From NCBI GenBank assembly GCA_036630325.1, contig CP142737.1:744001-808000 (forward strand): 64,000 nt of DNA, read 5' to 3'. Positions 7,695 through 60,430 of this stretch are shown here, piece by piece (within the stretch, counting starts at the first letter, position 1; each line of letters starts with the position of its first letter). The notes below the pieces were generated by a model. It made no database searches, had not been told where the DNA came from, and saw nothing but the letters and a program-made list of their open reading frames with translations. The translations under genes were made by a program, and so were the position numbers. This stretch comes from Vairimorpha necatrix (taxonomy: Eukaryota).

Positions 7695-7922
7695 TGTGGT
7701 ATTACAACCACATGTAAAATTCCATTTTCCCAAAATGGAATTTCTTAAATATTTTTTTTAAAAAATATTATTTTTCGACCCCAACAAAAAGAAAGAAGTA
7801 GATGCAGAAAAACAACAATAAACATTTTTTAAATAATAAACAAACAAGGCCCAAGGAGCCGTTTACAAGTAGTTTGCTAGAGGCCTACTTTCAACGAGGG
7901 TTCATCCCTCGTGACCACCTCA
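7695..7922 (+). repeat. 5' LTR of element 1
   Basis: Appears identical by eye to 11525-11752. Confidence 0.95.
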
Positions 7923-11514: not shown

Positions 11515-11524
11515 GGGGGCAGAA

Positions 11525-11752
11525 TGTGGTATTACAACCACATGTAAAATTCCATTTTCCCAAAATGGAATTTCTTAAATATTTTTTTTAAAAAATATTA
11601 TTTTTCGACCCCAACAAAAAGAAAGAAGTAGATGCAGAAAAACAACAATAAACATTTTTTAAATAATAAACAAACAAGGCCCAAGGAGCCGTTTACAAGT
11701 AGTTTGCTAGAGGCCTACTTTCAACGAGGGTTCATCCCTCGTGACCACCTCA
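11525..11752 (+). repeat. 3' LTR of element 1
   Basis: Direct repeat of 7695-7922 following the PPT. Confidence 0.95.
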
Positions 11753-15440: not shown

Positions 15441-15770
15441 TCACTTTATCCTTAACCCAAGCAGACTTTTTAGATCATAGTGCCTTTTCTTTACATATCT
15501 TCCATTTACTAACTTAACTATATAAGAATCATTGCCACATCTCTCTATAATTTTCCCACTCTCTAAAAACCTACCTTTCGAATATTTATCCGCACCTTTC
15601 AAGTTTTCCTTCTTAGCTACTCTCACGTACTCACCTACTTTAAATTTTTCCCGTTTCCCCATGTTAAACAGTTTTCCATATTTCCCCTGTGGGCTATTTT
15701 CAATCATTACATGTCCAGTTTTATCCTCTGTCGCTTCTATTGGTGTACATTTTAGTGCCGTGTGGTAAAA
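15441..15770 (-). CDS. Integrase C-terminal part of element 2, split off by a frameshift
   Basis: Shifting frame at the A4 run 15767-15770 gives YNMS/YHTALKCTP... continuing into FKVGEYVRV (ORF 15441-15707). Confidence 0.8.
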   Translation of the reverse strand, partial: FYHTALKCTPIEATEDKTGHVMIENSPQGKYGKLFNMGKREKFKVGEYVRVAKKENLKGADKYSKGRFLESGKIIERCGNDSYIVKLVNGRYVKKRHYDLKSLLGLRIK

Positions 15771-18499: not shown

Positions 18500-18546
18500 G
18501 TATTTATTTATCATAATGGAGGTAAAAATTATCAAAATATATAACA
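18499..18546 (-). repeat. 5' LTR of element 2 (48 bp)
   Basis: TGTTATATATTTTGATAATTTTTACCTCCATTATGATAAATAAATACA immediately followed by a TGG PBS. Confidence 0.92.
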
Positions 18547-18904
18547 TTAAATGCCAAAAACAAAGACGCCATGCGACTGCCGATGCGTTTTAAATTAGGT
18601 TAAATACATAAAATAACATTATGTAACATGTATTTTTATCAATCAGTGACAGAACAATCACATGTTTTGAGGATGTTTTTTACTTTTTAATTTTTTTTGT
18701 CAGTCGAACATCCAATAAAAATTTCAATAAGTTTTTACCACCTTTTAACATAAAAACATTACCAATTTAAATATTTTTTCAATATAACTACTAGTGAAGA
18801 CGACATTAGCAGGTGTCAGGCATGAATAATAATAGGTTTAGAGAAGTTATATCTCTATAAAGCACTTACAGAAATATTTTTTATAGAATTAATTTTTTTT
18901 TAAA

Positions 18905-19560
18905 TAATTAGATCATATGGCCACACAATGTGATCGTATGCTTTCACATGATTACATGAGATGGCAGAATGAGGCACTGCGATGCATCCACCTGCAGTAG
19001 TGTAAGACGTATGGTCTATCCCATGCCAAAAGAATTAGAAATCATTCAGTCCAGGAATGTGTAGCTAATGAGTATGTTGAGATACGAGTCGATAGTAGGA
19101 TACATTCAAGTATTAAAATAAAGTATAACAAGCCTGATATACTAATTGTAGACAAGTTGAGGAAAGAAGTGATCGTTGTAGAAGTTGAAATCACAATTTT
19201 TAACAACCTCCATGCTGTAGAAACAGAAAAGAAACATAAATACGACTTGCTCGCAAATCATGTGGCTTCTTTCTACAAATAAAAGCCGAAAATTATTTCT
19301 TATGTGATGACGTGGGATGGAATAGTAACTAATTTTCACCGTACGCATATCAAAGTGCTCAGATTAGAACCCTGAACGGAAGCATATATACAGTCAAGAG
19401 TCCTTAAAATGACTCTAGAAAGACTAACTATGTCAGCCAGACATGGGCTTGATACAGATCAGGAAGGGGTTTTCGAGAGCCCAATGAGTGAATCTCAGAA
19501 GGAAGTCCTGGAACTGCCAGATGAGACTGCAAGCGTATCTTGTGAAAAGTAATTAATAAG
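18905..19560 (+). mobile_element. Degenerate 5'-truncated RLE non-LTR retrotransposon (subfamily B)
   Basis: Interrupted translation LDHMATQCDRMLSHDYMR..NEALRCIHL, IRVD, KPDILIVD, VEVEI, YVMTWDG, YIQS, homologous to 780-1330. Confidence 0.85.
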
Positions 19561-28644: not shown

Positions 28645-28916
28645 GAAACATTTATAATTAAATAAAGGAGATGGATAAATTTTCTTGCTTGATATCGTGT
28701 ATTGTAAGCATAAAAAGAATAAAGACATACACTTATTGATTATGCTACTACAAACCAATGGATTAAATGATCAATAAAAACAATGATTCAATATTTTAGT
28801 TGTTGTAAACATCGTTTATAAAAAATTTGTTTTATATCATTTACTTTTTAAAAAAATTTGATAAAAGAAGAATTAGTAATAACTCATATTCGCATGCATC
28901 TGTCATTTTATGGGTC

Positions 28917-31900
28917 TGTCATGCGGTAAACCCACGCTGACCATTAGAATCCCTAAACCCAAAGACTTTTGACATGCGTTCGGAATAAATTAAATGTTTG
29001 ACACTTTTTGGTGTACAAACATTTATGACGTAAATATGTGTCTTACACATATTTCTACAATTTCTGTTTTCTTTTTATTTCCCTCCAAAATGGAAATATG
29101 TTTAATTAATATTTGCTAAAAAGTATTTAAGCAAATTGCCCCAAGAAGGGCACGATGAGTAATAAACGTTTAATTGATAATTCATCTTCTTTAAGTAAGC
29201 CCGCCAAGTATTGTCTAGAGACTAACTCGACAACAAGTGGCGACAACGGAGAGATTTCAGAAAAAGATTCCCTTGGCCTGGTAATGGAAGGATTGAAGAA
29301 TTTAGCACTAACTGACAAACTGAGTGAATTCAATGGTTATGAGAATGAGGATCCCAAGGCCTTTCTAGATCAATTTCTGGCATTTGAGACAAAATGGGCT
29401 GCAAATTATCTGCACCATAAGATTACGAGTATGCTGAAAGGAAAAGCAAGCCTGTGGTTTAAAGCCCACGAAAAGAAATTGGAAACCTATAAAAAATTTA
29501 TTGAAGGCTTTAAAAAGAGATTCGTCAAGGAAGTAAAAGTTACAGAGAACGCAGAGTTCTTTTGGAGATGTATCCAGGAAGGACCCAAGACCTCAGATGT
29601 AATCTCTTATTACTATAGTTTACGAATTTACGGAGAAGAAAATGAACTTTTATATACAAGAGCTAAGGAAAGAATCGTGGAGTTAGTAGAGGATGAACAT
29701 TTTAGATTTCATCTCAACACGTGTGAAAATTGGGACGAACTTGAAGCCTACCTGGAAGAAAACGAAAAGCCGATGAATAAAAAATTACGTTATTTCGGAA
29801 GAAAGCAAAGCATTACTACATTTCCAAGAAAAGAATTTGCAAAGAGAGATCAACCCGTTAACAAAGTAGTCGCAGAGTCGACAGGGCGATCAATATCCGA
29901 CGGAATGAGGAAAGTCCTTAGTATCTCAGCTAAGGTGAAGAATCAGGAAGATAATAGACCAAGAATTGAGTTGGTCTATGGCGATAATATTGTGAATGCA
30001 CTTTTAGACACAGGAGCTACAGTGACGGTAATTAAAAAAGCAGTAGCGGTACAACTCGACGCTCCCATTCAGAAAGAAGCCGGAGAAATTAAGGGCTTAA
30101 AGGGAGGGCGTCAGATTGTAGGTAGATGTTACCTAAACATAAAAAAGAAAGGTGAAAAACAGCCGAAAGGTTTTAATTTCTTAGTAGTCGAAGATATGGA
30201 GGAATCGATGTTGTTAGGCATTGAGGAGATTCGAAGACTAAATCTATTTTCATATCTTGCTCAGAAGAAGCAAAAAGATAAAATCACAAACAAAAATATT
30301 GTAATGGAAGCTAAGTTTGAAAACGAAGTAATAGAATCCTGTACTGATATTCAAGAATTATTAGAAGACATTGATTGCGACGAAGACAATACCAAACAAG
30401 AATTTAAAGACTTGATATCTGAATTTGGAGGCGTGTTTCAGGATGAAAATAAACAGATAAATATTGATATAGAACATGCAATCGAGCTGATGGAGGGTTC
30501 CAAAATGTCTATATGTCCTAAGTATAAACGATCTCCGGAAGAACATGAGACAATTAGGACAGAGGTTCAGAAATTCCTAACTCAAGGTTTGATTGAAGAA
30601 AGCCAGAGCCCATATGTGTCACCAGTGGTACTAGTAAAAAAAAAGGATGGTGGGTTGAGATTTTGCATCGACTTTAGAAGACTAAATAAAATTACTATAC
30701 CATACGAATATCCGATCCCGCGTATCGACGAAACTTTGGATCAATTGCAAGGCGCAAGAATTTTCAGTGTAATGGATGTAGAAGCAGCTTACAATCAAGT
30801 AACAGTTAAAAAGGAGGACCGATTTAAAACAGCATTTTACACTAGAGAAGGAGTTTTTCAATGGAAAAAGATGCCGTTTGGGCTTATTAACGCCCCCTTT
30901 ACATTTCAAAGAATAATGAATAAATATTTTAAACAGTATATGCATAAATGCGTCATGGTTTATTTGGATGATATTCTAGTATTTTCAAAAGATCACAAAT
31001 CTCACTTAATACATCTGAGACAGATTCTCGAAATTATCAGAAAAATAGGATTTAAGTTAAATAAAAAAAAATGTAAGTTTGTGCAGGAAAAAGTCGAATT
31101 CCTAGGTTATGAGGTAATTAACGGTAAAGTAGAAATACCGTTACAACAAAAAATGAAAACTATGGAATGGAAGACACCGCAGACAAAGAAGGATATCCGG
31201 GCATTTAACGGATTTTCGGCATTCTTCAATAGGTTTATCAAGGATTATGCACAAAAGATGTTACCCCTATATGAATTACTAAAAGGAAAGGAAAAAACTA
31301 AGTTTGTTCTAAGCGAAGAAGCATCAGAAGCTTTTGAGATAATGAAAGCAGAAATAAGAAAGGCGTCGGGATTACTTTTACCTAACTTTGATAAAAGGTT
31401 TTATATCGACACTGATGCATCGAACTTGGCAATAGGAGCCGTATTATCTCAATTGGATGACTACGAAAATAAATTAATGCCTGTAATCTGTTTCTCGTTG
31501 AAGCTTTCAGCTGAAAAAATTAATTATACAGTGACCGAAAAAGAGTGTTTGGCAGTAATTTGGGCGGTTAAAAAGCTTCGAGTATACCTTACTAGAGAAT
31601 TTACCATAAGAACTGATCATCAGGCCTTGAAATGGCTGTTAAATTTGAAAGAAACATCAGGAAGGTTAATGAGGTGGATACTCACTCTTCAAGAATATAA
31701 TTATAAGATCGAATACCTACCAGGAAAGATCAACGTGATCGCAGACGCAATGAGTAGGATAGTGATGAATGTCGCTGAAGAGAGACCCAAGGAAATTTCA
31801 GAGGAAGCTAAATTGGAAGCTATTATGAGAAGTCATAATGACTGTGGACACGGTGGTGTGGATGCCACGTATACCTTATTGAGAAAGGACTTAATCTGGA

Positions 31901-33182
31901 AAGGGATGTATAATGAAGTAAGAGATATTTTAAAATCATGTTCTGTTTGCAATAAATTCTCACGAGGCGTAAAAAATTTACAGAAAATAAGACTCCCTTT
32001 AACTAATCCACTGGACAAAGTTGGAATCGATCTCGTTGGACCTCTCCCAAAATCGGAAAACGGCAATAAATTTATAATTATTGCAACGGATTATATAACG
32101 AGATGGTGTGAAGCTGAGGCGATAAAAACAAAATCGGCGAACGTTATAGCTGAATTTCTTGTAAACAAAATATTTTTACAATATGGCCCTCCAAAAGAAC
32201 TGTTGTCAGACCAAGGAACTGAATTTACCAATTCACTGGTTAAAAGAGTGTGCAACATGATGAGCACCAAGAAATCGTTTACCTCGAGCTACAATCCTAA
32301 ATGTAATGGATTAGCCGAGAGAACAAATCAGACTCTGATAGGAAAACTAGCAAAGATAGTGGACGGGCGTTGGAAAGAATGGGATGAGTACTTACCATAT
32401 GCCGTATACGCATATAGAATATCTCCAAGAAGATCAACGGGACATTCTCCATATGAATTATTATTTGGTAGAGCACCTAATCGGGTTGTTAATGAGAATA
32501 AGTTATTCTCAGAGGTTGAAGAAGATAATAACTTAATTATTGAGCGACTAAATCAATTTCGAGATACATTATTAAACTTAGAACGAGAAATTAGACTGAC
32601 GGAAATGGACAGAGTGAAACCAGAACAAGATTCTGAAGACTTAAAGCTAAACGATTATGTAAGAAGAAGGAAACAACCAAATGAACGTTTAAATAAACTA
32701 GATAACAGGTTCGATGGTTTTTTTAGAATTATTAAAGTTGGAAGAAATGGCAACTATGATATTGAAGACGTTTTAGGAAAAAGATTTTCAGTCAATCGAA
32801 AGGATATCATGAAAGTTGAGGAATCTGATCCAGCAGAGTGGATCACTTCTAAGAGGGGAAGTATGTCATGCGGTAAACCCACGCTGACCATTAGAATCCC
32901 TAAACCCAAAGACTTTTGACATGCGTTCGGAATAAATTAAATGTTTGACACTTTTTGGTGTACAAACATTTATGACGTAAATATGTGTCTTACACATATT
33001 TCTACAATTTCTGTTTTCTTTTTATTTCCCTCCAAAATGGAAATATGTTTAATTAATATTTGCTAAAAAGTATTTAAGCAAATTGCCCCAAGAAGGGCAC
33101 GATGAGTAATAAACGTTTAATTAATAATTCATCTTCTTTAAGTAAGCCCGCCAAGTATTGTCTAGAGACTAACTCGACAACA
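28917..33182 (+). mobile_element. Full-length Ty3/Gypsy LTR retrotransposon (element 3)
   Basis: 319-bp LTRs (28917-29235 and 32864-33182; one mismatch seen, 29176 G vs 33123 A), TSD GGGTC, PBS TGGCGAC, PPT AAGAGGGGAAG. Confidence 0.97.
29155..32919 (+). CDS. Intact single-ORF Gag-Pol polyprotein
   Basis: 1254 aa; LLDTGA, YLDD, TDAS, RTDH, HHCC, IDLVGP..SDQG..ER. Confidence 0.96.
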   Translation: MSNKRLIDNSSSLSKPAKYCLETNSTTSGDNGEISEKDSLGLVMEGLKNLALTDKLSEFNGYENEDPKAFLDQFLAFETKWAANYLHHKITSMLKGKASLWFKAHEKKLETYKKFIEGFKKRFVKEVKVTENAEFFWRCIQEGPKTSDVISYYYSLRIYGEENELLYTRAKERIVELVEDEHFRFHLNTCENWDELEAYLEENEKPMNKKLRYFGRKQSITTFPRKEFAKRDQPVNKVVAESTGRSISDGMRKVLSISAKVKNQEDNRPRIELVYGDNIVNALLDTGATVTVIKKAVAVQLDAPIQKEAGEIKGLKGGRQIVGRCYLNIKKKGEKQPKGFNFLVVEDMEESMLLGIEEIRRLNLFSYLAQKKQKDKITNKNIVMEAKFENEVIESCTDIQELLEDIDCDEDNTKQEFKDLISEFGGVFQDENKQINIDIEHAIELMEGSKMSICPKYKRSPEEHETIRTEVQKFLTQGLIEESQSPYVSPVVLVKKKDGGLRFCIDFRRLNKITIPYEYPIPRIDETLDQLQGARIFSVMDVEAAYNQVTVKKEDRFKTAFYTREGVFQWKKMPFGLINAPFTFQRIMNKYFKQYMHKCVMVYLDDILVFSKDHKSHLIHLRQILEIIRKIGFKLNKKKCKFVQEKVEFLGYEVINGKVEIPLQQKMKTMEWKTPQTKKDIRAFNGFSAFFNRFIKDYAQKMLPLYELLKGKEKTKFVLSEEASEAFEIMKAEIRKASGLLLPNFDKRFYIDTDASNLAIGAVLSQLDDYENKLMPVICFSLKLSAEKINYTVTEKECLAVIWAVKKLRVYLTREFTIRTDHQALKWLLNLKETSGRLMRWILTLQEYNYKIEYLPGKINVIADAMSRIVMNVAEERPKEISEEAKLEAIMRSHNDCGHGGVDATYTLLRKDLIWKGMYNEVRDILKSCSVCNKFSRGVKNLQKIRLPLTNPLDKVGIDLVGPLPKSENGNKFIIIATDYITRWCEAEAIKTKSANVIAEFLVNKIFLQYGPPKELLSDQGTEFTNSLVKRVCNMMSTKKSFTSSYNPKCNGLAERTNQTLIGKLAKIVDGRWKEWDEYLPYAVYAYRISPRRSTGHSPYELLFGRAPNRVVNENKLFSEVEEDNNLIIERLNQFRDTLLNLEREIRLTEMDRVKPEQDSEDLKLNDYVRRRKQPNERLNKLDNRFDGFFRIIKVGRNGNYDIEDVLGKRFSVNRKDIMKVEESDPAEWITSKRGSMSCGKPTLTIRIPKPKDF

Positions 33183-45359: not shown

Positions 45360-45477
45360 AATTACGGCCATATCTACTGTAAAGCACCGGAACTCGTCAG
45401 CTCTCCGAAGTTAAGCCAGTAAGAGCCTTGTAAGTACTGAGATGGGAGACCGCTCGGAAAAGCAGGGTGCTGTAATT
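45360..45477 (+). rRNA. 5S rRNA
   Basis: ~118 nt; terminal helix AATTACGGC/GCTGTAATT, conserved CCGAAGTTAAGC and AGTACT..ATGGGAGACC, oligo-T terminator. Confidence 0.95.
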
Positions 45478-46316
45478 TTTGAAAATTTGATAAGGTGCAA
45501 TTCATTTTATTTGTCCACATATCTTTTTTATTGCATGATAAAATCAAAAAAAATGACCCTTTTGACATTATTCCTCCGTATACATATATTTTTATTTTTG
45601 AAAGTCAAGGTAGTGAAAATAAAATTTATAAAACAAAAACAAGAATTTCATAGGCCTTATATTGAAAATTGACTCAATAATCACAATAACAGTTTATAAT
45701 GATATAAAATTCTTTTAAACAGTGTTTAATATCTCAAAGTATCATATTTTTTACTTGTATTAATATTACACTTGCCAAGGTATAATAAATTTTCATGTTT
45801 TTTAATAATTCACATTTGTATTCTTTCTTCTATTCAAATCTTATACTAAGTTTTTTAATACATATAATTTTACGCACCTTGCCTTATAAACATCTTTAAG
45901 ATGTATAATATCGATTTTGTGAATAGTAAGAAATAAATTCTATTATTAAAGTATATATTTCTAAGATAATTGCACTTACAACATCCCAATAAGTTATAAT
46001 AAATTGATTAAGACTTCTCTTTTTTGCGTATAAAATGTATAATAAAGAGATGTCATGACCTTTTAGGTCGAAGAAAGATTGCAAATAAAAATGTGTTAAA
46101 TTTACCAATATGTTATATTCTTGTAATTTTATTTTATTTTGCTCATCCACATTTTCCACTTAGACTTTCAAAAATTATGCTAAAAATAAAATCTAAAATT
46201 TTTAAAATTGAATATGACCTTGATTCGTGACATTACGCCTTAGAAAAAATATACTACGCACAATTGAGCTTGCTTTTATAAATTTGACTAAAAGAATAAA
46301 AGGTTGCATTTTATAT

Positions 46317-46898
46317 TTATAATACTTTATTAATTGTTTCTACCCCTTCTTTACTTACAATTTTGATTTCTATATTAGAAATATCCACAGAGCATCTTTG
46401 TTTTAAAACATAAAAACATTTCTGTATTATTTTTATTCCGTCTTCTTTGGTTATATTCTTATGATATTCCTTGTCAAGCACACCGTAGCAAAAATAAGTA
46501 GAAATTCCTACAGCCATAAAATCATTCTCATGCAAAGATCCATATAAATCTACGCTGTATAACTCAGGGCCGTCTTGTGACAGTCCACCTACTAAAAAAT
46601 AACAATTTTTAGGATGTGATCTTAAGTTGTCATATAAAGTCTTCTGGATTACATTGGCAGTCACCTTAGGAGTAATTTCTACATTATTCTGTATCTCTTC
46701 GTAAATTAACTTCTCATTGATAAAAGACGAAGTTCTAAAAGCATCTCCTTGGTCGCCCAAGTAGGTAAAAACCACCTTATTGTTTATATTGTAAAATTTA
46801 TCTTCTTCCCTTTTAAGAACTAAATATGAATTCTTTACACTAGAATCAGTTCCTATAATGACAAAATCATTGCCTTTTAGAGCTACAGAAGATTCCAT
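46317..46898 (-). CDS. PRE1: 20S proteasome beta subunit (beta4/PSMB2-like)
   Basis: MESSVALKGNDFVIIGTD...DK...GDQGD...LVGG...GPELYSVD; ATG 46898 follows CCC. Confidence 0.85.
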   Translation of the reverse strand: MESSVALKGNDFVIIGTDSSVKNSYLVLKREEDKFYNINNKVVFTYLGDQGDAFRTSSFINEKLIYEEIQNNVEITPKVTANVIQKTLYDNLRSHPKNCYFLVGGLSQDGPELYSVDLYGSLHENDFMAVGISTYFCYGVLDKEYHKNITKEDGIKIIQKCFYVLKQRCSVDISNIEIKIVSKEGVETINKVL

Positions 46899-47607
46899 TT
46901 TGTTTTTAGGGTAGAAAATAACAAAAAATAGTAAGACGAAAAAAATCAAACTAAGATATGAAATATCCAGTAGTAACACATAAAACAGAAATGATTTATT
47001 AATGAGAATAGAAAAATGTAATATTTGTTTAAATAAATAAATTGAAGAGGCGTCTTTATTGTTTGAGATAGAATATAAAAAAATCTACAAGAGAGTGTAA
47101 TGACTTGAAGACAAAGTAAATGGAGCATTTCCACTTTGTACACCCTACATATATAAATATCAATTTTAGAAAATATCCCTGATTTTCGGAATTCGAGGCG
47201 GACAGAACGAGAAGAAAAAAAATCGAAAAAAATTTATAAAAAAACAACATAATAACTAAAAATAAACAAATTGTATTTTTATTTTACTATCTACTTGATT
47301 AACTCTGTTTTTATTATACATTTATATGTATAATACTAAAAAACATTATTGTATATGTATAATGAACATTTCAACACGACTAAATTTTAATGTTATTAAT
47401 TAAAAATAAGTAAAAAATTTAATAATATTAATAAATGAAATCAACTGTACAGCAGTTTATTTTCTATAGTTTACAATTCCGAATTGCGCGATGTATATAA
47501 ATGATTTAAAAAACATAAAGTAATGTTTAACTTCTTCATTCGTCTGTAAAAACCAATAAATTAACAAAAATACTAATTTTTTATACATAGTCAAAAATAA
47601 TAATAAC

Positions 47608-48326
47608 TGGCTTGGTTTTTTCCCAGGGGCATCAAAATTATTTTAACTTGTTATGATGCAGATGGAACAACTCAGATGATGAAAATGTCCACATTATCAT
47701 TAAATATGATCAATGAAACTTGTGTGCGTCGAGCCACAAGGGAATTGTGCTCTAGTGTTAAATGCTTTTGAGGCTGAAAAAACAGTAATCCTCTCGTAAT
47801 GACTTAATGATACATAAAAGCATCTGATACGTATGGCATGCGCCTTCTAAATTAAGATCATAAGTTGACTAAGAGATCAGACGAAGTAGAGCAGTAGAAA
47901 GTCTTCCGGACCCTATTCTACAAGATTCTTTAGCACGGCGCAGAAAATTATGGGAGAATGGTGATCAACGCAGCCCAATAAAAATGCCGGGCTGGGGATG
48001 TGGTCGTGTAAGGAGCCGTGTGTGCGATACAGATGATTGTAGGGACCTTTGAGTCAGTACGATGATGTCTCTCCTCGGGTTATAGATAACCATGCCCGTT
48101 AAGTATATCGCGCTGTGAGGTCACTCTGGACGCGATTTGAGGTATAAATGGAAAGTGTTCTCCTGTTCAAAGTTCAATGGATACAACGGAGTTTGCTGCA
48201 CAGTCAAGTCATAAAGAAAGTTTTGTGAGTAAGAATCGTACAGTGCTAGTTGGCAAAAAATCACACACAAATATATCTGGACCCTATGTAAGGTTACCCT
48301 CTACCCCTTATTTATAAGAAAAAAAA
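47608..48326 (+). mobile_element. Older, 5'-truncated copy of the tRNA-headed SINE-like element
   Basis: Colinear with ~55783-56530; remnant CCCAGGGGCATCA head and short A tail; no clean TSD. Confidence 0.85.
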
Positions 48327-48541
48327 TATTTATAATAAAATGTGCTATAAACAAATAAAGTTCAAAATTTTTTATACTATAAAAAACATTCTTATTTATA
48401 ATATGTTGTAAATCCAAAGTATGCAGTTTTTAACGACTGCTTTTTTATTACTTCCATTTTAACATGGTCTCAAAAAATTTCATACCTCTTAAATTTTGTT
48501 TACTCTACTTATTTGTTTAAAAAAAAATTTCAACCCCCTGT

Positions 48542-49501
48542 ATGTTCCAATATATACTTTTGATAGTATGTACTAAAAGTATTAATCAAACAACTCAAAT
48601 GAAAAATTTGCATTCGAATATTATGCTACAATATATCAATGAGGAAACTTTATCCAACACAATTACGGATGAGAAAAATCTTCCATTTAAAAAGAGAAAA
48701 GGAATGTTAAATACTAAATTGACGTATAACATGCCCTTTAATACAAGTAATTATCCTTTCAAACGTCCCCATGAACAAAATAAAGATGATTATAGCCCAA
48801 GTGTTAAACGTATATGCAATAAAATTCTTACACATTTAGATGATTCTAATGAGGAAAACGAAAGAAATGCAACCTTTAAGACTGATTATGACTTGTCATT
48901 AAAAGAATTGCAAGATCAAATATGCGACTGGAAACAGAATGACCAAAAAACTATGAGAGAATACGTAACAATAGTACGTGATAAATGCACCGAAGAGTTA
49001 AAAATATACTTCGATAGAAGAATCAAAATTTACCGAATGGTGTCCAAGTTTAGAAGTACCATCAAAAAAGAGATTCTTATAAATAAAATTAAGAAGTATA
49101 TAAAAAGTGTTTCTACAAATGACAAACAAAAAGAACTATTATATTATAATTTCGATATTTATATAAATTGCTATAATTTCATCGCAAGCATGACCCCCAA
49201 CCAAACACAAAGATACCTACACGAAAGTCCTATTGTAATTTCAATATACAAGAAATTAATTAATCGACTTGACATCATATTTAATAAGTTTAAAATATTA
49301 TCATCTTTTGAAAATTTTAAATTAAATTTAGAAAAAATACCTTCGAAACCATTTACTAAAGATGAATTGTTGGGACTTAAGTTCTTGGAGGAAGATTTTA
49401 GGGATTTGTTTAAAAATTTAAGTACTATTTATGAGTACAGCTTAGAAATAATTAAAAGCCTTACAACTTGCAGAGAAAAATATGGAATAAAAATGAAATA
49501 A
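48542..49501 (+). CDS. Hypothetical putative secreted protein with NLS-like motifs
   Basis: 319-aa ORF, CCCCC before ATG, hydrophobic N-terminus, PFKKRK. Confidence 0.7.
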   Translation: MFQYILLIVCTKSINQTTQMKNLHSNIMLQYINEETLSNTITDEKNLPFKKRKGMLNTKLTYNMPFNTSNYPFKRPHEQNKDDYSPSVKRICNKILTHLDDSNEENERNATFKTDYDLSLKELQDQICDWKQNDQKTMREYVTIVRDKCTEELKIYFDRRIKIYRMVSKFRSTIKKEILINKIKKYIKSVSTNDKQKELLYYNFDIYINCYNFIASMTPNQTQRYLHESPIVISIYKKLINRLDIIFNKFKILSSFENFKLNLEKIPSKPFTKDELLGLKFLEEDFRDLFKNLSTIYEYSLEIIKSLTTCREKYGIKMK

Positions 49502-51796
49502 TCTGAAAACATCTTTTACTCTTTATACATATAAATTTCATTGTAAAAAAGCAATTAACGCGAGGTATTATTACTAGTACAAAAAGATTATGTTCATTTT
49601 TTCATAATTTCCATTTTTGGAAATAGGCCATTCGACCGGTATATTCCAAAAATTGAAAATTTATTTAATTTTATTCGTCGCACATACAATTGATAAAATA
49701 AGACGACCTAATAACAATGATTTCTAAAGAAAAACAAACCGACCACTACCCTTGTGACTTAATACCAAGGAAGAGCGATTACACTAGGGATGAATAAATA
49801 TCGCGTATCCATGACCAATGCAGCAAATTAATTTTTAGTAGAGTATTATCATCATTGAATTGTATTTGCTTTGAGGTAGCTCCTCCGCGGTTCTTCAACC
49901 CCATTTAGTTTTTTTAAAACTGCGTTTAAGGTAATATAATAATTAGCCTTTTCTTTTATGACACATAATAGAAACATTTAAACTTCTACGTATACAGATA
50001 GTATAAGCACATTACTAAATAGAAATTTAATATACAAAACCATATAATTATCAACCTAAATAAAATCACAGACAGGGGCAAAATTCAGCAATAACGTATA
50101 AAATATTGGGTAAAATTTTTTAGAAAATTATAAGAATAGGAAATTTCAAAAAACCTAAACTGAAATGTTAAATAAAAATGTTGTTAAATTGATGCCAAAA
50201 TACGTAAAAAATATCAGCAACATATTTAAATACGCTTATAGGGATCTTGACGTCCATTATTTGAAATCATACAGAGAGGTTAATTAGATATTAAAATATA
50301 CCTATGGGAATATGTCCTACACCTAATGAGCATAGAGGCTTCTATGGCCTCACTTTGCTTCGACGGGTTATAGATCCCCATTTTCAATTTTTAAAATGTT
50401 TGGCTGTGATTCGGTGGGTTATAATTCCTATAATAGCCTTTCAAGATAATATAGGTCCTCTACATATCCATTATTATGGTAAGGATTTAAGATGTATATC
50501 CTTCAATAAGATCGAAGGTATTGCATCTTCGTTTCATTTTTAGTAATCACGCTATCCCCTTTTTTGTATTAGTTCTTTCCACTATTACGAAAAGTTAAAA
50601 CCCCTTTGACTAATCATCCTCTATAGTATTAATTTGCACTAATTTTACATTTGTCTATCTTTAATCGATTTAATTGCTCTATATGTTCTAAGTTATTTAA
50701 ATATTTAATTAAGGTAATTTTTCTGATGAACTTCTGACGTTTTGTACGTTACAACTAATCTTTGTTTATATGAGTCACTTTACCCACGCAATATCCAGAA
50801 TATAACAGTTAATAATGTAAGTAAATGATCTATCTTACTATTATATAGTTAGATTTTTTTAAATAAAAAAAATGGCTTGCTTTTTGGAATTGATCATTAA
50901 TAACAAGCAGTTTCGTTTAAACCTTTGAATGAATCTCAACTACAGATTGTACATTTCTATTTCTTGTACGATAACCAGATATAGAATTCTTTATACTCTG
51001 TATTACATAGGTTTCCTTTTATTTTTAAACAAATGACAATTTTTTGAAAAAATTTGATCTTTGTCATTTTTTATACATTAATGCTGATTTGGGCCGGATA
51101 GGCATTTTGTAGACCATTTTAGATTTTATTTGCAAAAGTTATTTATATTTCATTAAAATTCTACGAATTTTATCTTTATGCACTTCAGAAATAACATATT
51201 TAATATCAATAAAAAAATTCTGCCATGATTTAATGAACTGTAATGTGGCAAATTTCAACAAATCCAAGTCTTTTTTTATTGGATATTTAAAATAACATAC
51301 CTGAGATTTGTCTTTCTTAAAGTGCATTCGATAGTTGATATTGTGTATTTGAGAAAATGTTATTCTACTACTTTCTTTTCTGTAAAATATTTGAAAAATG
51401 ATAAATATTTATATATTTAATTTTGATTAAATAGTGTTTCTATTGTTTAAATACGGGGCTTAGACTATCGAGATTTCAATCACAAAATGTAGTTATAGTT
51501 TTTATCATGCAATTATATTAATGTTGCTAGACTTATATTCCCCGCACAAGTTTGATTAAATGATAGTAGTTATAAGGATGCTGGGAGGAATGTCCTTGGA
51601 AAACAAGTAGGAACGATATATTATGTTTGATAAACAGAAAGAAAGAGAAATAAAAGAAAACCATTTTTAATGTCTTGTTGTAGAAAGACATTAAAATAAA
51701 TACAATTTTTATTTATATACATTTTTTATCTGTACTTCATATGTCAGATTAACAATGGCGATTTTCTTTATTCTAACATATAGGCAATTTTAATTT

Positions 51797-52153
51797 TTAA
51801 ATCTTGTTTATATTGTTTTTATCGTTTTGTTGTTCCATTTTATAATCATTTTTAATATTTATTATACATTCCGAATAATATAGACGGGATTGTTGTTTGT
51901 TTTCCTCTTCTGTTATATATATTGTGCATTCAGAATTATACAGAAATATCTCTTGTTCTTTATCCTCATTTGGGTTCATGTTTCTTGCAATTCCCTTTGG
52001 CCTTACAGTTATAACACCATTTCCTATAATATTATTTTCTTTTGTAGTTATATTTACATTCGATACTACTAAATTATTGTTGCCATTAGATGTAGAAGAC
52101 ATATAGGATAAATAATAAAATATTTGACCGACGATTCCGTACAGCAAAAACAT
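51797..52153 (-). CDS. Hypothetical Asn-rich protein with a hydrophobic N-terminus
   Basis: CCCC-ATG at 52153; internal duplication LYNSECTI / LYYSECII. Confidence 0.55.
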   Translation of the reverse strand: MFLLYGIVGQIFYYLSYMSSTSNGNNNLVVSNVNITTKENNIIGNGVITVRPKGIARNMNPNEDKEQEIFLYNSECTIYITEEENKQQSRLYYSECIINIKNDYKMEQQNDKNNINKI

Positions 52154-52412
52154 GGGGTAAAAAATTTGCATCATTATATAAATATAAACAAACAAACGAT
52201 TTATTTCCTTTTTCTTTATAAAAAAGTTGATTATTATTAATTCATATTGTATTAATTTATAACTTAAAATCTGTGTTGTTATTGTTTATACACATTTTTT
52301 TTCTGTTTACTATGCACTAAAAATTTATTCGATAATAATTTCAAAGTAAATACGAAATATTTTGAACAAAGTCTTTTCAAATGAATAATTGATAGAATTC
52401 GATCTATTATTA

Positions 52413-53560
52413 CAGGGTTTTGCATTTCTATATTCCCATAAAAATAAGAAATTTCAATAATAATAAAAAATGTTTAGTAAATAAAATCTTCTCTTGCTCT
52501 TGCCTTTTCTAGCCAGCCTATCATATTTCTGTAAAACGCAGGACACTCACGGTTATAATCTAAACTCAAAACGTTCTCAATAATTGTTTAAATTAGACTT
52601 TCTGATGAATGAAATGATGAAAATCTTGCCTTGAGCATTGAAAAAAACTCTTCAATGGGATATAGTTGTGGTGAATAAGAAGGCAGAAATTTGTGATTAA
52701 TGCCTAGATTATTTAATTTTTGTAAAACTTTCCGCGAATGATGAAAACTGGCATTATCCATTATAAGAACTTCACCTGGATTATTTCTAAAAAACATAAA
52801 AAATTTATTTTTAACAAAGTTTATAAAATTCTCGGAACTATATGCTCCGCGTTTATACTCAAATGCCAATAATCCATTTATAGTAATTACACACATACAG
52901 CTTATATTTTGGCCACTATTTGCTGGCACATTTTTATAGGCTTTAGTATTCTTTTCTGAATATCCGCAACTTAGCATAGTATGAGCGTTAAACGCAGTTT
53001 CATCGAGAAAAACTAGGTTTTCGGCCGAGTACCTACTAATTTCGGAGGCATAAATACTTCTTTGGTTTATTTTGTCCAACGAGTTACGTTCAACAGGAAT
53101 CAAACTGAGCCTTTTTCTTGTTATACCGAGTTTTTGAGTTTTCTCGATATTGAAGATTTTGACAAATTTACATTTGTTCGTATTTTAACTCATTAGAAAT
53201 TTCCTGTAAAGTCATATCGTTTGCACAGTCAACTATGTTTTTAACAACCCGATCTGTATTCGAAAGCATTTCATTTTGATACAACTGCCGGAATAGACCT
53301 TGTAGGTTGATTGTGCTGGTTTCGAATAATAGATGCAACGGTTTTACGATGTAAATCAACCATAGTCGATATTTCGGCTATGGATCGCTTTTCATCTTTT
53401 GCCAATTCGAAAACGATATTATTTAATTCGTTGGTTATTGTTTTCCTTATTTTTCTTACCATTAAGGGGATTAAAAAATTCAAATTTTTATAAGAATATA
53501 GAAATGCAAACATGGGAATATAGAAATGCAAACAGGGGAATATAGAAATGCAAAAACCTG
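52413..53560 (-). mobile_element. IS630-Tc1-mariner DNA transposon (DD34E) with a frameshifted transposase
   Basis: ~25-bp TIRs CAGG(G/T)TTTTGCATTTCTATATTCCC, TA TSD, FLDET / MDNASFH / SPQLYPIE with 34 residues from D to E; ATG at 53462. Confidence 0.92.
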
Positions 53561-54461
53561 TATTCATATCGCTTTCAAAGACCAAATTATCCATCTTTTC
53601 ATTAAATTTTTAAAAACATATTTAAATTAGAGGGATTAGTGATGTTATTATTTGATATTGTTTATAAAATCAATGATATATTTGGACTGAACAATCGAGG
53701 AACCCCAAATTTCTTACACGGTCTTATACAGGTATAAGAATCATCTACGTATATAACGACTATTATATCTTGTCAAGTTAAATATATAAATATTTTATAA
53801 TACTTTCCCAAATAAAAAAATCATTATAATAATTTAGTTACAGATACATTTTGTACTTGTTTTGCTTAGACTTCGTTCTAATATAACTTTTTATCAAACA
53901 AGCAGTTTTGATATTAAAGTGCATTTTAGTCAATTGTAGAACATAAACAGCTATATATAACGAACTTATTGATGTATACAGATTGCAAACATATAAATAT
54001 ATTATTTTTTTTGCGCACTTTAATTGGTACAATTTACGATATACATTGAAAAAAAAATTATTTTTTGTTTATTCTAAGGTTTGATTAGAAATGTGTTATA
54101 TAGGGTTCTAGTTGCTTATAAAATATGACATAACAATCTAAAATACTATTCTTTGTAGACTAATCTTTTTGTAACAAATCTCTTTTAAGCAGTAAGCATT
54201 TTACTTGAATTTTCTTGGTCCGCGGTATTTAAAAGCATTATGTTTTTTATATATTTAATTACAAAAAAAATTCTATAAATTATTCTCAGATTTCAAAGCC
54301 AATTTGTATAATGCGTTCTGTGTTTGTCACGGGAAAATCGTATTCTTTTAAACCAAAAAAACCAATGGTGCCTTAAAATTAAAGACATAATAATAATTAG
54401 AATGTATACAAGAATATGAACCAATTTTCTGTAAATTGAGAGTTTATCGAGAAGTATAATA

Positions 54462-55140
54462 GGTACATGACCGTTTGGAACCCGCTTTGGGAAAATAAAC
54501 TTGCTTTGAAATTTTAAAGGACCCCCTTTAAAAAAATGGCAAAATTGGCAAAAACAATGTTTGTTGAGGCAGATGAGGTTTTTAGTGATGTAATGTATTT
54601 ATACGTGGAATATAAAGAAAAGTTTATTTTGGAAACATTTGATGCTGAATCGGCGTGCGCCTTGCTCGTTTCTGTAACTAGTAGAATACTGCTTTTTCCT
54701 TGAGGTGATACAAGAAAATGTATAACCTGTTTCTATTATGATCTCTAATCAATGGGTAGCATATGATGTCACATTAGCTAAGCAAAGGGATGGAGCACAG
54801 TACTAAGAATCACTCCGTAAATGCCATAACCTCTAACCTCTAGCGATTCCGAGTCACAATATTATATAATTTAGTTGGTTTCGGCTCATTCCTATAAGAG
54901 ATATTTGATCTTAACATAAACAAAGAAGAACACTATGAGTACCTTTTACAGTTTCACCAGGCTTTTCAAATTCCCAAAAATTAACGGATAAATTGTCTTC
55001 TGTCATTTTTTAAAATAAATCATCAAGTCCTTTTTTTATAACTTTTTTTTATTTTTCCCTTTTTTTGAATTTTTCAAAGCGGGTTTATTTTCCCAAAGCG
55101 GGTTCATTTTCCCAAAGCGGGTTCCAAACGGTCATGTACC
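54462..55140 (+). mobile_element. Non-autonomous Merlin (IS1016-like) DNA transposon
   Basis: TIR GGTACATGACCGTTTGGAACCCGCTTTGGGAAAAT, 8-bp TSD GTATAATA, GG/CC termini, decayed KIG..VEADE, W.AY and NHS motifs. Confidence 0.85.
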
Positions 55141-55739
55141 GTATAATACTTAAAAAATGATAAATTATTATTATGTTGTTTCAAAGAACACTTTCACTAT
55201 TTTCTACATTTTTCCTTTATCATTTTTAAAAAGCTTTACTTCTCTAATTTAATTGATCGAGCATTTAGATCTAAAAATCAATGTAAACTCCATTTGTTTA
55301 AATATTTCAAGTCGACAATTTGGAAGCGTTTACTGGCGTCTTGACATTTGAATCCTTCTTTGAGGTAGAAAACTGTGGTGTAATATTTTTTGTAGTTTTT
55401 TATCTATATAAACTTGTCAAGATCTAAGGATGTGATGTTATTTTGAGTTATCCCGAATCAGCCTTTTCAAATAATTTTTGTTATTTGTTGATTTTTCCAA
55501 CCTCGCATTTTAGGATTTCGATTAAAAGAAATATCTAAAATACTATAAATACAGATATTTTTAAAGTAGCCTTGTTTTATACATTGCCTAGTTTTCTATA
55601 TAGTTTATGCTAAACATATACAGCAGAAGATCTATTTTACAGAGTATTGATTACCTACATCTACAGATCATATATATATATATAAGGATTTCCACTTTTG
55701 TTCAGTTGTGTTTTTTGAACATCACGACAATTTATAAAA

Positions 55740-56537
55740 GGTGCCCTTGGCCGAGTGGTCGAAGGGATGTTCTCATTGACCAATGGGCTGGGTTCGAGTC
55801 CCAGGGGCACCAAATTGTTTCTACTTTCTATGATGCAGTTGGAACAACTCAGATGATGAAAATGTCCACGGTAATCATTAAGTTGATTCAATGAAACTTG
55901 TGTGTGTCCAGCCACAAGGGGATTAGCATCTAGTGTAGAAACGCACCTCAAGGCCAAAAAGCAGTATCGCCCTTTGGTGACTTAATAATAAATAAAAGTA
56001 TCTAATAGGTACGGCCTAGTTGGAGCCCATGGCTGGTGACTCTAGAGTAGGATTCTAGAGCTAACTAAGAGACTAGACGAAGTAGAGCAGTAGAAAGTCT
56101 TCCGGACCCTATTCTACAAGATTCTTTAGCACGGCGCAGAAAATTATGGGAGAATGGTGATCAACGCAGCCCAATAAAAATGCCGGGCTGAGGATGTGGT
56201 CGTGTAAGGAGCCGTGTGTGCGATACAGATGATTGTAGGGACCTTTGAGTCAGTACGATGATGTCTCTCCTCGGGTTATAGATAACCATGCCCGTTAAGT
56301 ATATCCGCTGTGAGGTCACTCTGGACGCGATTTGAGGTATAAATGGAAAGTGTTCTCCTGGAGCCAAAGTCCAATGGATACGGCGGAGCTTGCTGCACCG
56401 GCAAGTTATACGGAGGGAGTTTTAGTGAGTAAGAATCTCACAGTACCAGTTGGAAAAGGATCACACCTAAATCCCTCTGGTCCCTATGTAAGGTTTCTCC
56501 CTACCTCTTACTTGCAAAGAAAAAAAAAAAAAAAAAA
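55740..56537 (+). mobile_element. tRNA-derived SINE-like element, full length
   Basis: A box TGGCCGAGTGG, B box GGTTCGAGTCC, paired acceptor and T stems, poly(A) tail, 13-bp TSD GACAATTTATAAA (55726-55738 and 56538-56550). Confidence 0.9.
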
Positions 56538-56877
56538 GACAATTTATAAACTATAGACTATGATTTATTCCTCTATGGTTTTAAAAATTTTAATAAATAT
56601 GCTCCTTACGAATCTTGTATATGATAAAATTTTTATCTACACAATTAAAAAAATTATTTAACATTGTATGTCTTTTCCTTGTGTTTATTGGATGGAAGAT
56701 TTTAAATAATTATTAGTTCTTTCGATTATTCAAGGCATAAAATTTTTTGAACGTGTTTATTTGTTATATCTATTTCTTCGGTGTTGATTCTTTCAATTAC
56801 TTCATTGCCGAATATTATTATAGTTTCTGGGCATTGTCGTATAACAAAAGTTATTACAAAGAAATACAAACAAGAAA

Positions 56878-57050
56878 GTTTAAAATGACTATAGAAAGCC
56901 TAACTATGTCAGTCAGACATGGACTTGATACTGATCAGGAAGGAGTATTTGAGAGTCCATTGCGTGGATTCCTGAAGGAACTCCGGGAACTGCTAGAAGA
57001 GACTGTAAGCGTATCTTGAAAAAAGTTGTTAGTAGGTAAGATATTTTATT
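56878..57050 (+). mobile_element. RLE non-LTR 3'-end fragment (subfamily B)
   Basis: Aligns with 19405-19560. Confidence 0.8.
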
Positions 57051-58060
57051 CATGTTCAAATAAAGGATTTTATTACAAAGAAATGATATATGAAAGCTAT
57101 TTCTACAAAAATCCTTTTATATCCCTAGTGTATTGTTTACGTCAATACTTTACAAAATAATCTACGTTAAACATCAAAATATGAAATAGTTATGTCGCTT
57201 TGAACAAACTATTTTTTTTAAAAATTAAATAGTTTTACGTTCATTTAGACCAGTTACGTCGGCGTTAGTTTTCCTCTATAAATTTTCAAGTCTCCAAGCC
57301 GCATGTTTTATACTTTAATATATATTTATTTTACTTATTTTTCATGTATCTTTATAGACTCTCTCTTAGAAACATAATTAAAATCTATGATCAATCTTAA
57401 ACACTTAAAATATTTAAAATTGTACAAAAAGACTATTTTTTTCGAATTTGTAGGATTTTTTATTTTTATTTGATCTGATAAAAATCATACATCTACAACG
57501 AATTACAAAATGCTTTATTGTTATTGGCGCGCTTTACAATAACAAGTAAATATATTTTTTCGTCTTTATAAATTATACGATATGCTTTTGGTTTGTTATT
57601 GACACTACCCGCTGTTTGAATTTTAGATTTTTTTATTAATTGTATCTAAAAATACACTTTAGATTCCCCTATGTTAGGAAAACAAGTTCAAAACATTTAA
57701 AAATTTATAACTTTGTATTTTACTAATTATTAAAATATTGCTTCATTATTGTCATTTAAATGATCTTAATAAAAAAGTAACTGAACATTTCAATTGTTTT
57801 TTTCGTCACTCGAAGAAAACACATTACTTGGATGTCTATTATCTATTTCTATAAATTAGGCCATGATTCAATACATATTTTTGACGAAAATATCATGTAA
57901 TGCTTAAAATTTTTAGATAAAAGATAATTACAATCACAGGAGTTGTATCCTCATTTGAGCAAACGTCGATAGCAATGTATTACGTCGTTTTATGGGTAAA
58001 AATTAAAAAAAAAGTCAATCAGTTAAATAAACGTTATATATACATTTTTTTAATTACATT

Positions 58061-60430
58061 TTAATTGTTCATAACACTTGATAACCAGTCACGAATAGAT
58101 TGCTTCTTTTTAGGTATCATTCGAACTTCAATTTGAGCAGGTAAAGTAAAAATTTTTATAGTTGGATGCACTGAGGTGTTCGAAGCTTGGCCCTTAGATG
58201 TTTCTTTTGATTCATTAATTACAATAATCTTTTGGGTATTAAGAGACTCTGTCTTTGGTTGTACTAAATTTTTTTCTCTTGATACTTCTGTTGATAAATC
58301 TACAGGTTTTTCCTTTGTATTTTCTACAGGTTTTTTTGTTGGTAACTCTACGGGGTTTTCTGTTGGTAACTCTACAGTCTTTTCTACAGGGATTTCTGTT
58401 GGTAGTTCTACAGGCTTTTCTTTATTACTTTCTACGGTAATTTCTGCTGGTAACCTTGCAGGCTTTTCTGATGATATCTCTTCAGTCTTTTCTTTAGTAA
58501 TTTCTACTGTCTTTTCTGTTGGTAACTCTACGGGGTTTTCTGTTGGTAACTCTACAGTCTTTTCTACAGGGATTTCTGTTGGTAGTTCTACAGGCTTTTC
58601 TTTATTACTTTCTACGGTAATTTCTGCTGGTAACCTTGCAGGCTTTTCTGATGATATCTCTTCAGTCTTTTCTTTAGTAATTTCTACAGTCTTTTCTGTT
58701 GGTAACTCTACGGGGATTTCTGTTAGTAACTCTACAGTCTTTTCTACAGGGATTTCTGTTGGTAGTTCTACAGGCTTTTCTTTATTACTTTCTACGGTAA
58801 TTTCTGCTGGTAACCTTGCAGGCTTTTCTGATGATATCTCTTCAGTCTTTTCTTTAGTAATTTCTACAGTCTTTTCTGTTGGTAACTCTACGGGGATTTC
58901 TGTTGGTAACTCTACAGTCTTTTCTACAGGGATTTCTGTTGGTAGTTCTACAGGCTTTTCTTTATTACTTTCTACGGTAATTTCTGTTGGTAACCTTGCA
59001 GGCTTTTCTGATGATATCTCTTCAGTCTTTTCTTTAGTAATTTCTACAGTCTTTTCTGTTGGTAACTCTACGGGGTTTTCTGTTAGTAACTCTACAGTCT
59101 TTTCTACAGGGATTTCTGTTGGTAGTTCTACGGGCTTTTCTTTGTTACTTTCTACGGTAATTTCTGCTGGTAACCTTGCAGGCTTTTCTGATGATATCTC
59201 TTCAGTCTTTTCTTTAGTATTTTCTACAGTCTTTTCTGTTGGTAACTCTACATTTTTTTCTACAGGCTTTTCTTCTGGTAACTCTACATTTTTTTCTACA
59301 GGCTTTTCTTCTGGTAACTCTACAGTCTCTTCTACAGGTTTTTCTTTAGTAATTTCTACAGGTTTTTCTTTAGTAATTTCTACAGGTTTTTCTTTAGTAA
59401 TTTCTACAGGCTTTTCTTTAGTAATTTCCGCTGGCCTTTCTTTAATAATTTCTACAGGCTTTTCTGATGACAAATCTACAGTCTTTTCTTTAATAATTTC
59501 TACAGGCTTTTCTTTAGTAATTTCTACAGGCTTTTTTGATGGTAACTCTACAGGCTTTTTTGATGGTAACTCTGCCGGCTTTTCTGATAGTAACTCAACA
59601 GGCTTTTTTGATTGGTTTTCTACAGGCTTTTCTTTATTACTTTCTACGGTAATTTCTACTGGTAACTCTACAGGCTTTTCTGATGATATCTCTTCAGTCT
59701 TTTCTTTAGTAATTTCTACAGTCTTTTCTGTTGGTAAATCTGCAGGCTTTTCCTCTGGTAACTCTATAGTCTTTTCTACAGGTTTTTCTTTAGTAATTTC
59801 CACCGGCTTTTCTTTAATAATTTCTACAGGCTTTTCTGATGACAACTCTACAGTCTTTTCTTTAATAATTTCTACAGGCTTTTCTTTAGTAATTTCTACA
59901 GGCTTTTCTGATGGTAACTCTACAGTCTTTTCTTTAGTAATTTCTACAGTCTTTTCTGAGGGTAACGCTACAGTCTTTTCTGCTGGTAACTCTACATTTT
60001 TTTTTACAGTCTTTTCTTCTGGTAACTCTACAGTCTCTTCTACAGTTTTTTCTTTAGTAATTTCTGCCGGCTTTTCTTTAGTAATTTCTACAGGTCTTTC
60101 TTCTGGTAACTCTACAGTCTCTTCTACAGGGTTTTCTGCTGGTAAATCTACAGGCTTTTCTATTGTTAACTCTACAGGCTTTTCTTTATTTATTTCTACG
60201 GGTATTTCTGTCGGTAACTTTACAAGCTTTTCTATTGGTAACTCTACAGGCTTTTCTTTATTATTTTTTTCGGGGATTTCTGTCGGTAACTCTACAGGCT
60301 TTTCAGTTGCTTTTTTTATAACCTTTTCATCCACAATAGTTTTTATGGATTCAGGCGGGCTCCCAGTAGTTGTAGCTTTTACATATGAGTTTAGTGCTAT
60401 GCTAGAAACTATAATTAGATTAAATTTCAT
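58061..60430 (-). CDS. Secreted E/K/P/V/T-rich repetitive protein (candidate spore wall or polar tube component)
   Basis: Signal peptide MKFNLIIVSSIALNSYVKA, CCCC before ATG, 8-aa EKPVE-type repeats. Confidence 0.85.
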   Translation of the reverse strand: MKFNLIIVSSIALNSYVKATTTGSPPESIKTIVDEKVIKKATEKPVELPTEIPEKNNKEKPVELPIEKLVKLPTEIPVEINKEKPVELTIEKPVDLPAENPVEETVELPEERPVEITKEKPAEITKEKTVEETVELPEEKTVKKNVELPAEKTVALPSEKTVEITKEKTVELPSEKPVEITKEKPVEIIKEKTVELSSEKPVEIIKEKPVEITKEKPVEKTIELPEEKPADLPTEKTVEITKEKTEEISSEKPVELPVEITVESNKEKPVENQSKKPVELLSEKPAELPSKKPVELPSKKPVEITKEKPVEIIKEKTVDLSSEKPVEIIKERPAEITKEKPVEITKEKPVEITKEKPVEITKEKPVEETVELPEEKPVEKNVELPEEKPVEKNVELPTEKTVENTKEKTEEISSEKPARLPAEITVESNKEKPVELPTEIPVEKTVELLTENPVELPTEKTVEITKEKTEEISSEKPARLPTEITVESNKEKPVELPTEIPVEKTVELPTEIPVELPTEKTVEITKEKTEEISSEKPARLPAEITVESNKEKPVELPTEIPVEKTVELLTEIPVELPTEKTVEITKEKTEEISSEKPARLPAEITVESNKEKPVELPTEIPVEKTVELPTENPVELPTEKTVEITKEKTEEISSEKPARLPAEITVESNKEKPVELPTEIPVEKTVELPTENPVELPTKKPVENTKEKPVDLSTEVSREKNLVQPKTESLNTQKIIVINESKETSKGQASNTSVHPTIKIFTLPAQIEVRMIPKKKQSIRDWLSSVMNN
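58321..59250. repeat. About five near-identical 180-bp coding tandem repeats
   Basis: Sequence recurs at 58321, 58501, 58681, 58861, 59041 and 59221. Confidence 0.93.

Follow-up and report, generated by a model that had tools for sequence, protein, structure and literature searches.

A near-identical tract in two neighbouring SINE copies of Vairimorpha necatrix, probably left by short-range gene conversion

Two copies of a SINE in the genome of Vairimorpha necatrix, a microsporidian parasite of Lepidoptera, share a near-identical tract of about 286 nt between diverged flanks. The tract is most likely the product of a one-off, short-range conversion between neighbouring SINE copies, an event of a known kind in a host for which it has no prior description. 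Specifically, the sequences suggest, with a probability of roughly 0.6, that recent ectopic gene conversion copied a tract of the type carried by one copy (B) into an old copy (A) 8.2 kb away. An earlier note on this DNA had offered three readings of the tract: a selected functional RNA module, module swapping between subfamilies and recent gene conversion. The last of these fits best, given a tract lying inside diverged flanks, a young copy B and a decayed copy A.

Anatomy of the two SINE copies

Both copies lie on the same strand of the 64-kb stretch of DNA analysed here (the window), 8,196 nt apart with copy A upstream, and a blastn search with a word size of 7 found no copies within the window beyond these two. 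The parts of copy B, which is the complete one, are as follows.

55726-55738 (no strand): left target-site duplication of copy B, GACAATTTATAAA, an exact 13-nt match to 56538-56550 (by script and by reading)
55740-56537 (+): SINE copy B, with a tRNA-like head, a non-coding body and a poly(A) tail
55740-55812 (+): tRNA-like head, the presumed Pol III promoter, called by ARAGORN as tRNA-Met with anticodon CAT
55813-56074 (+): 5′ body, 71% identical to copy A (MAFFT)
56075-56360 (+): near-identical tract (the core), presumed donor type, with one substitution and one indel relative to 47879-48165; GC 47%
56361-56519 (+): 3′ body, 77% identical to copy A
56520-56537 (+): tail of 18 uninterrupted A, read from the sequence
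56538-56550 (no strand): right target-site duplication, the perfect 13-nt partner of 55726-55738

The element has the tRNA-like 5′ head, the A-rich tail with target-site duplication, the non-coding body and the many copies that define a SINE, and in each of these it resembles the tRNA-derived SINEs (SINE2/tRNA class). It differs from them in its unusual length (~0.8 kb) and in its GC content, which ranges from 40 to 62% among its parts and is high for a genome of 29% GC. The head reaches 62% GC and the body 40-48%, compared with 27-28% in the flanking DNA, and CpG is undepleted in the core (15 observed, 15.3 expected). No partner LINE is present within the 64-kb window. We take the head to fit the A-box and B-box consensus; in Rfam it gives a match to the tRNA-like mascRNA model (28.6 bits, E 0.016) that lies below the gathering threshold. 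A coding reading of the core was ruled out by the stops found in all six frames. With its intact tRNA-like head, its tail of 18 A and its perfect 13-base target duplication, copy B looks like a young insertion.

Copy A is more eroded, and comprises the following parts.

47609-48326 (+): SINE copy A, the apparently older partner of copy B
47609-47878 (+): 5′ part, starting inside the decayed T-arm of the head and AT-shifted (repeat search, family D8; MAFFT; blastn)
47879-48165 (+): near-identical tract, presumed recipient (MAFFT columns 347-633)
48166-48326 (+): 3′ part with a run of 8 A at 48319-48326 (by reading and alignment)

Since copy A begins inside the decayed T-arm, it is 5′-truncated. 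It has no clear target duplication, the longest match between its flanks found by script being 7 nt in AT-rich DNA. The GC content of its 5′ part is 36%, against 40.5% in copy B. At 59 sites in the SINE sequence flanking the tract, copy B has G or C and copy A has A or T, while the reverse holds at 29 (binomial p 0.0018); this AT shift is in the direction expected of decay, because the genome is 28-29% GC.

The near-identical tract

Aligned with MAFFT (55730-56530 against 47600-48330), the two copies agree almost perfectly over columns 347-633, which correspond to 56075-56360 in copy B and 47879-48165 in copy A. The earlier note's count of one substitution and one 1-bp indel, made by eye, is borne out by the column counts: position 56191 is A in copy B and G in copy A, and copy A has one extra G after TATATC. 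In the 5′ flank, 187 columns are identical, 77 are mismatched and 21 contain a gap; the corresponding counts for the 3′ flank are 121, 36 and 5. If mismatches occurred in the tract at the rate of the flanks (0.268), the probability of finding at most one in 286 columns would be about 1.6e-37. The edges are as sharp as had been claimed for these diverged flanks, which are 71-77% identical: the last flank differences directly adjoin the tract on both sides, at columns 345-346 and 634-637. An independent repeat search recovered the same pair (family D3, 98% over 247 nt). Segmental duplication was considered as an origin for the pair and rejected, as the similarity stops at the edges of the element and copy B has a target duplication of its own.

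The SINE family in public sequencing contigs

Six public runs contain part of 55000-57500; none is RNA, and they are therefore uninformative about expression. Logan contigs of four public runs were aligned to 55500-56800 at 80% likeness. One run (X1) is assigned to the same species because the unique right flank of the element, 56552-56800, is present in it with 0 differences at a depth of 48. The others come from another organism (X2), a bat gut metagenome (X3) and a freshwater metagenome (X4), the last of which gave 6 short pieces that were left out of the comparison. On the element itself lie 404 contig pieces in X1, 258 in X2 and 19 in X3. Summed depth over the element in X1 ranges from 1,374 to 269,126, compared with 48 on the unique right flank, although depth is not equivalent to copy number. 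Depth peaks in the 3′ tail for X1 (56336-56511: 122,540 to 269,126) and in the 5′ body for X2. In both runs it is lowest in a bin of the core, 56116-56159 (1,580 in X1, 91.9 in X2).

Contigs lose rare variants, and the variant counts given here refer to the 40 positions listed, beside which there are 46 further rows. The 286-nt core accounts for 24 of these 40 variable positions, the 5′ body for 11 and the 3′ body for 5. The most variable part of the family is the first third of the core, some 85 bases. Within it, between 56086 and 56160, copies A and B share 16 departures from the family majority among the listed positions; 15 of them oppose 73-100% of the X1 depth, and the remaining one, 56154, opposes 98% of the X2 depth. 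At 56103 the letter of the window has no support at all (0/5171.5 of the depth in X1, 0/199.5 in X2 and 0/5.69 in X3). The core shared by A and B is thus a rare version rather than a family-wide invariant. The window's version of 56086-56160 is absent from the X1 contigs, even though the right flank is present there without differences. X1 contigs give no cover of the left flank, 55500-55719, and a gap in contigs carries no proof.

Elsewhere copy B stays close to the family majority. Over 56160-56360, some 200 bases at the end of the core, it has the majority letter at almost every listed position, with high contig depth, and the same agreement with the majority holds for the whole of copy B outside 56086-56160, 3′ body included; the 5′ body is near the majority with exceptions at 55987, 55991, 56007, 56036, 56049 and 56054. 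At 56191 copy A keeps the family-majority G (98% of the X1 depth), so that the A of copy B is private. As no high-support insertion row exists at the indel site, the extra G of copy A is probably private as well. Of the 113 flank mismatches of copy A to copy B, only 4 (55871, 55987, 55991 and 56468) coincide with a listed family variant, which suggests that the flank differences of copy A are mostly private and not visibly subfamily-diagnostic. Together with the AT shift, the truncation and the weak tail, these mostly private differences point towards a copy A that may be older than its tract, as judged from the two window copies and the listed family variants.

The family also appears modular. 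At the junction of head and body, 55812, contigs continue upstream into different tRNA-like heads (10 loose ends in X1 and 12 in X2, among those listed, with an agreement of only 0.64 and 0.5), so that the family may carry several heads on one body. Within the body, variable segments between 55940 and 56160 differ among family copies. One X1 contig skips 56089-56383, near the limits of the tract; it is 1 of 36 joints, 15 of them listed, which we treated as unreliable because their sides are short (21-40 nt, at 80% likeness).

The bat gut metagenome X3 contains near-identical pieces of the SINE, one with 4 differences in 216 nt and one with 11+2 in 304 nt. An exact-pattern scan with a 22-mer of the core gave 0 matches in viral, metagenome and genome contigs, and a degenerate pattern of the tail gave 0 in genome contigs and 0 in viral contigs. 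A 20-mer of the 5′ body did hit four loci in metagenome contigs (L001-L004); these have only a 21-22-nt seed in common with the element and were set aside as chance matches.

The core as a functional RNA

The reading of the core as a selected structured RNA module, RNase P/MRP-like or other, held constant by selection between drifting flanks, is exceedingly improbable. Its starting point is a motif near the start of the core.

56094-56109: 'P4-like' motif GAAAGTCTTCCGGACC, inside the core of copy B

The motif is taken to resemble the 5′ strand of P4 in RNase MRP/P RNA, a likeness drawn in the earlier note. Two features of the core would suit a structured RNA, namely its GC content of 47% in a 29% GC window and the closeness of 56160-56360 to the family majority at almost every listed position, with high contig depth. 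However, a search of 47300-56800 with all 4227 Rfam models, at E up to 10, found no match in the core of A or B. With the laxest filters, the 361 nt of 56040-56400 gave five matches at chance level (E 3.3-5.8), to three snoRNA models, one lncRNA and one IRES. Neither search, at E up to 10, returned an RNase P, MRP, telomerase or ribozyme model, and at gathering thresholds the whole window yields a 5S rRNA gene and nothing else. The core does not fold better than expected either: shuffled sequences average -78.1 kcal/mol against a minimum free energy of -73.5 for the core (z +0.93), and 165 of 200 of them are at least as stable. The whole element, tRNA head included, gives an unremarkable z of -1.86 on the basis of only 20 shuffles. 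The motif is predicted to fold back on itself as a small local hairpin, and no 3′ partner strand for it was found by the earlier note or by any model.

Comparison with the family argues in the same direction. At four of the 16 positions of the motif, 56096 and 56101-56103, 97-100% of the family depth in X1 and X2 carries a different letter. The core holds the lowest depth bin and 24 of the 40 listed variable positions, and its longest X1 pieces are 11-21% different (54+6/328, 25+1/130, 61+10/360, 37/177 and 27+4/238), much as pieces of the flanks are (14-15%: 25+2/167 and 32+5/225). Moreover, the decay of a copy after its insertion is neutral, and the middle of one old copy cannot therefore be preserved by selection acting on a source gene. 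The functional RNA reading is therefore largely refuted: as far as the contigs allow, the core is no more conserved than its flanks and it has no covariance-model match. The suggested kinship with P4 (strands CR-I and CR-V) falls with it, there being no RNase P or MRP match and a quarter of the motif positions replaced across the family, as does the idea of a selected module of some other kind, in view of the lack of excess fold stability. What is shared with RNase P/MRP RNA (P4 helix, CR-I) is only the 16-base resemblance drawn in the earlier note; the differences are the missing covariance-model match, the missing partner strand and a motif unconserved among family copies.

Gene conversion and its alternatives

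The simplest explanation for a young, B-type middle within an old, decayed copy A is that the middle was replaced in place. Copy B, or another copy of the B type, would have served as template for the overwriting of some 286 internal bases of copy A, either during repair of a break in copy A or by repair of a heteroduplex. Since the transfer each copy would have acquired one private change, the A at 56191 in copy B and probably the extra G in copy A. That copy A carries the majority G at 56191 fits a change in copy B after the transfer. The features expected of partial ectopic conversion are present, namely a sharp-edged tract of near-identity in diverged, close paralogues on the same strand. 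Gene conversion between Alu elements acts within about 10 kb and declines with distance, and partial conversion yields hybrid elements, of which 69 partial cases are reported (PMC8230782). The spacing of A and B and the pattern of the tract fit those reported for Alu. As context, recombination has been described in Nosema between dispersed variants of rDNA (PMC3566094).

Several points weigh on the conversion reading. Homologous repair between sequences that are ~25% diverged is strongly disfavoured and expected to be rare. If the old core of copy A was as decayed as its flanks, conversion would have had to proceed via short homology anchors only. Further, with the window's version of 56086-56160 absent from the X1 contigs, its assignment to the subfamily of copy B is presumed.

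These points, along with the contig that skips 56089-56383, are the reason why we keep as an unlikely alternative a mosaic made before or during insertion. Copy A would then belong to a recombinant subfamily, or be a chimera of two SINE subfamilies produced by two template jumps of the reverse transcriptase, and the shared core would be a module exchanged between source elements instead of a change in situ. The modularity of the family, with recurrent contig breaks at 55812 leading into different heads and with 55940-56160 variable among copies, speaks for such exchange, and the skipping contig might hint at a swappable module, even if it belongs to the 36 short-sided joints. Modular SINEs with shared central domains are known (PMC4758252, PMC5499810), as are double template jumps in a fungus (PMC2104539). 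However, the flanks of copy A look aged rather than subfamily-like, given their AT shift (59 against 29) and the mere 4 of 113 differences that match listed variants. Copy A also lacks the hallmarks of a young insertion, yet its core is 99% identical to that of a young copy. The 3′ edge of the tract, 56360, falls in a well-covered part of the family, and no recurrent junction is seen there among the loose ends listed (283 further exist). Two template jumps, finally, are rarer than one conversion. Module swapping between subfamilies, as the earlier note had it, thus stands as a weaker rival, backed by the modular contigs of the family and opposed by the age-like flanks of copy A.

The assembly itself could have produced the tract, if reads of copy B or of another haplotype homogenised 286 bases of copy A during assembly or polishing. 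The published V. necatrix assembly is of a tetraploid genome with 50% repeats and was polished with Flye (PMC10759460), conditions under which such errors might arise. Set against this, the HiFi reads of that assembly, if the window derives from it, have an N50 of 13.7 kb (PMC10759460) and span a 0.8-kb repeat along with its unique flanks, so that misplaced reads are unlikely, and the two tracts still differ at two positions. We regard an artefact as very unlikely.

Comparison with known systems and implications

The closest parallel to the conversion proposed here is partial conversion among Alu elements, in which a tract in one SINE copy is replaced by that of another, giving an old/young hybrid, between neighbours within about 10 kb (PMC8230782). 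The Alu pairs differ in being 7SL-derived elements of a primate host, in contrast to the tRNA-headed, ~0.8-kb element of a microsporidian, and their flanks are typically far less diverged than the ~27% mismatches found here. Proof in the Alu study came from the orthologous unconverted locus (PMC8230782); the present case is built on the two window copies and the contigs of one alignment at 80% likeness, and no unconverted allele of copy A is among them.

A conserved middle between diverged ends, here in the two window copies alone, also recalls the CORE, V and Deu SINEs and the 'jigsaw' SINEs of molluscs (PMC4758252, PMC5499810). In those elements, by contrast, conservation of the centre extends to many copies, families and species (PMC4758252, PMC5499810). 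Unlike in the CORE, V and Deu SINEs, the first third of the tract is the most variable part of the element, and the version carried by A and B is absent from the contigs of three samples. In the contigs, the core of the V. necatrix SINE is no more conserved than the rest of the element, and the family accordingly does not group with the superfamilies defined by a conserved central domain.

SINEs have barely been described in microsporidia, and the word SINE is absent from the V. necatrix genome paper (PMC10759460). Should the conversion reading be correct, it would mean concerted evolution between dispersed retroposons in a microsporidian, and the dating of repeat copies by divergence could mislead in a repeat-rich genome. 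The tract otherwise represents ordinary biology and opens no long-standing question. It also offers a caution, in that a functional RNA should not be read from an 'invariant core' in two copies before the whole family has been compared. Two bolder possibilities, taken together, seem improbable: either short-range conversion of old retroposons across ~25% diverged flanks is routine, or the last ~200 bases of the core and the tail form the handle for a partner reverse transcriptase. Routine conversion would imply an unusually weak homology barrier and would make divergence-based ages unreliable for repeats, which amount to half of the genome.

Genomic setting

The V. necatrix genome is described as tetraploid, with 28.3% GC and 50% repeats, and was assembled from HiFi reads (PMC10759460). 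The window has a G+C content of 28.9% and contains intron-less housekeeping ORFs along with several Ty3/gypsy-type polyproteins. Over 76% of its length, one of the ORFs, 46317-47084 (-), shares 99% identity with a V. necatrix protein named proteasome subunit beta type-4; its next matches are 74% and 66% identical, the latter to a protein named for V. bombi. These matches assign the DNA to V. necatrix or to a species very close to it. About 2.1 kb upstream of copy A lies a 5S rRNA gene at 45360-45478 (+) (Rfam RF00001, 96 bits, E 1.3e-19). The 5S copies of V. necatrix are dispersed, with about half of them on one chromosome (PMC10759460).

Three Ty3/gypsy-type polyprotein ORFs, with protease, reverse transcriptase, RNase H and integrase, are found at 7695-11752, 28914-33160 and 15752-18589 (-). 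Two of the three carry terminal direct repeats, one pair being 228 nt long with 100% identity and the other 300 nt long with 99%, which marks both as young insertions. A nested tandem array at 58262-60400 has periods of 12, 24, 36, 72, 180 and 360, its 180-nt unit being repeated 5.4 times at 96%. The array is open on both strands, with ORFs of 778 aa (+) and 798 aa (-) that have no Pfam match, and may be a gene for a repeat protein. Upstream of copy B, 55070-55125 holds three tandem copies of a ~20-nt unit (ttttcccaaagcgggtt...). Finally, a dispersed repeat of 140-169 nt, with copies of 78-82% identity in inverted orientation, occurs at 1985-2153, 19359-19527 and 56864-57003, the last of these some 0.3 kb downstream of SINE copy B.
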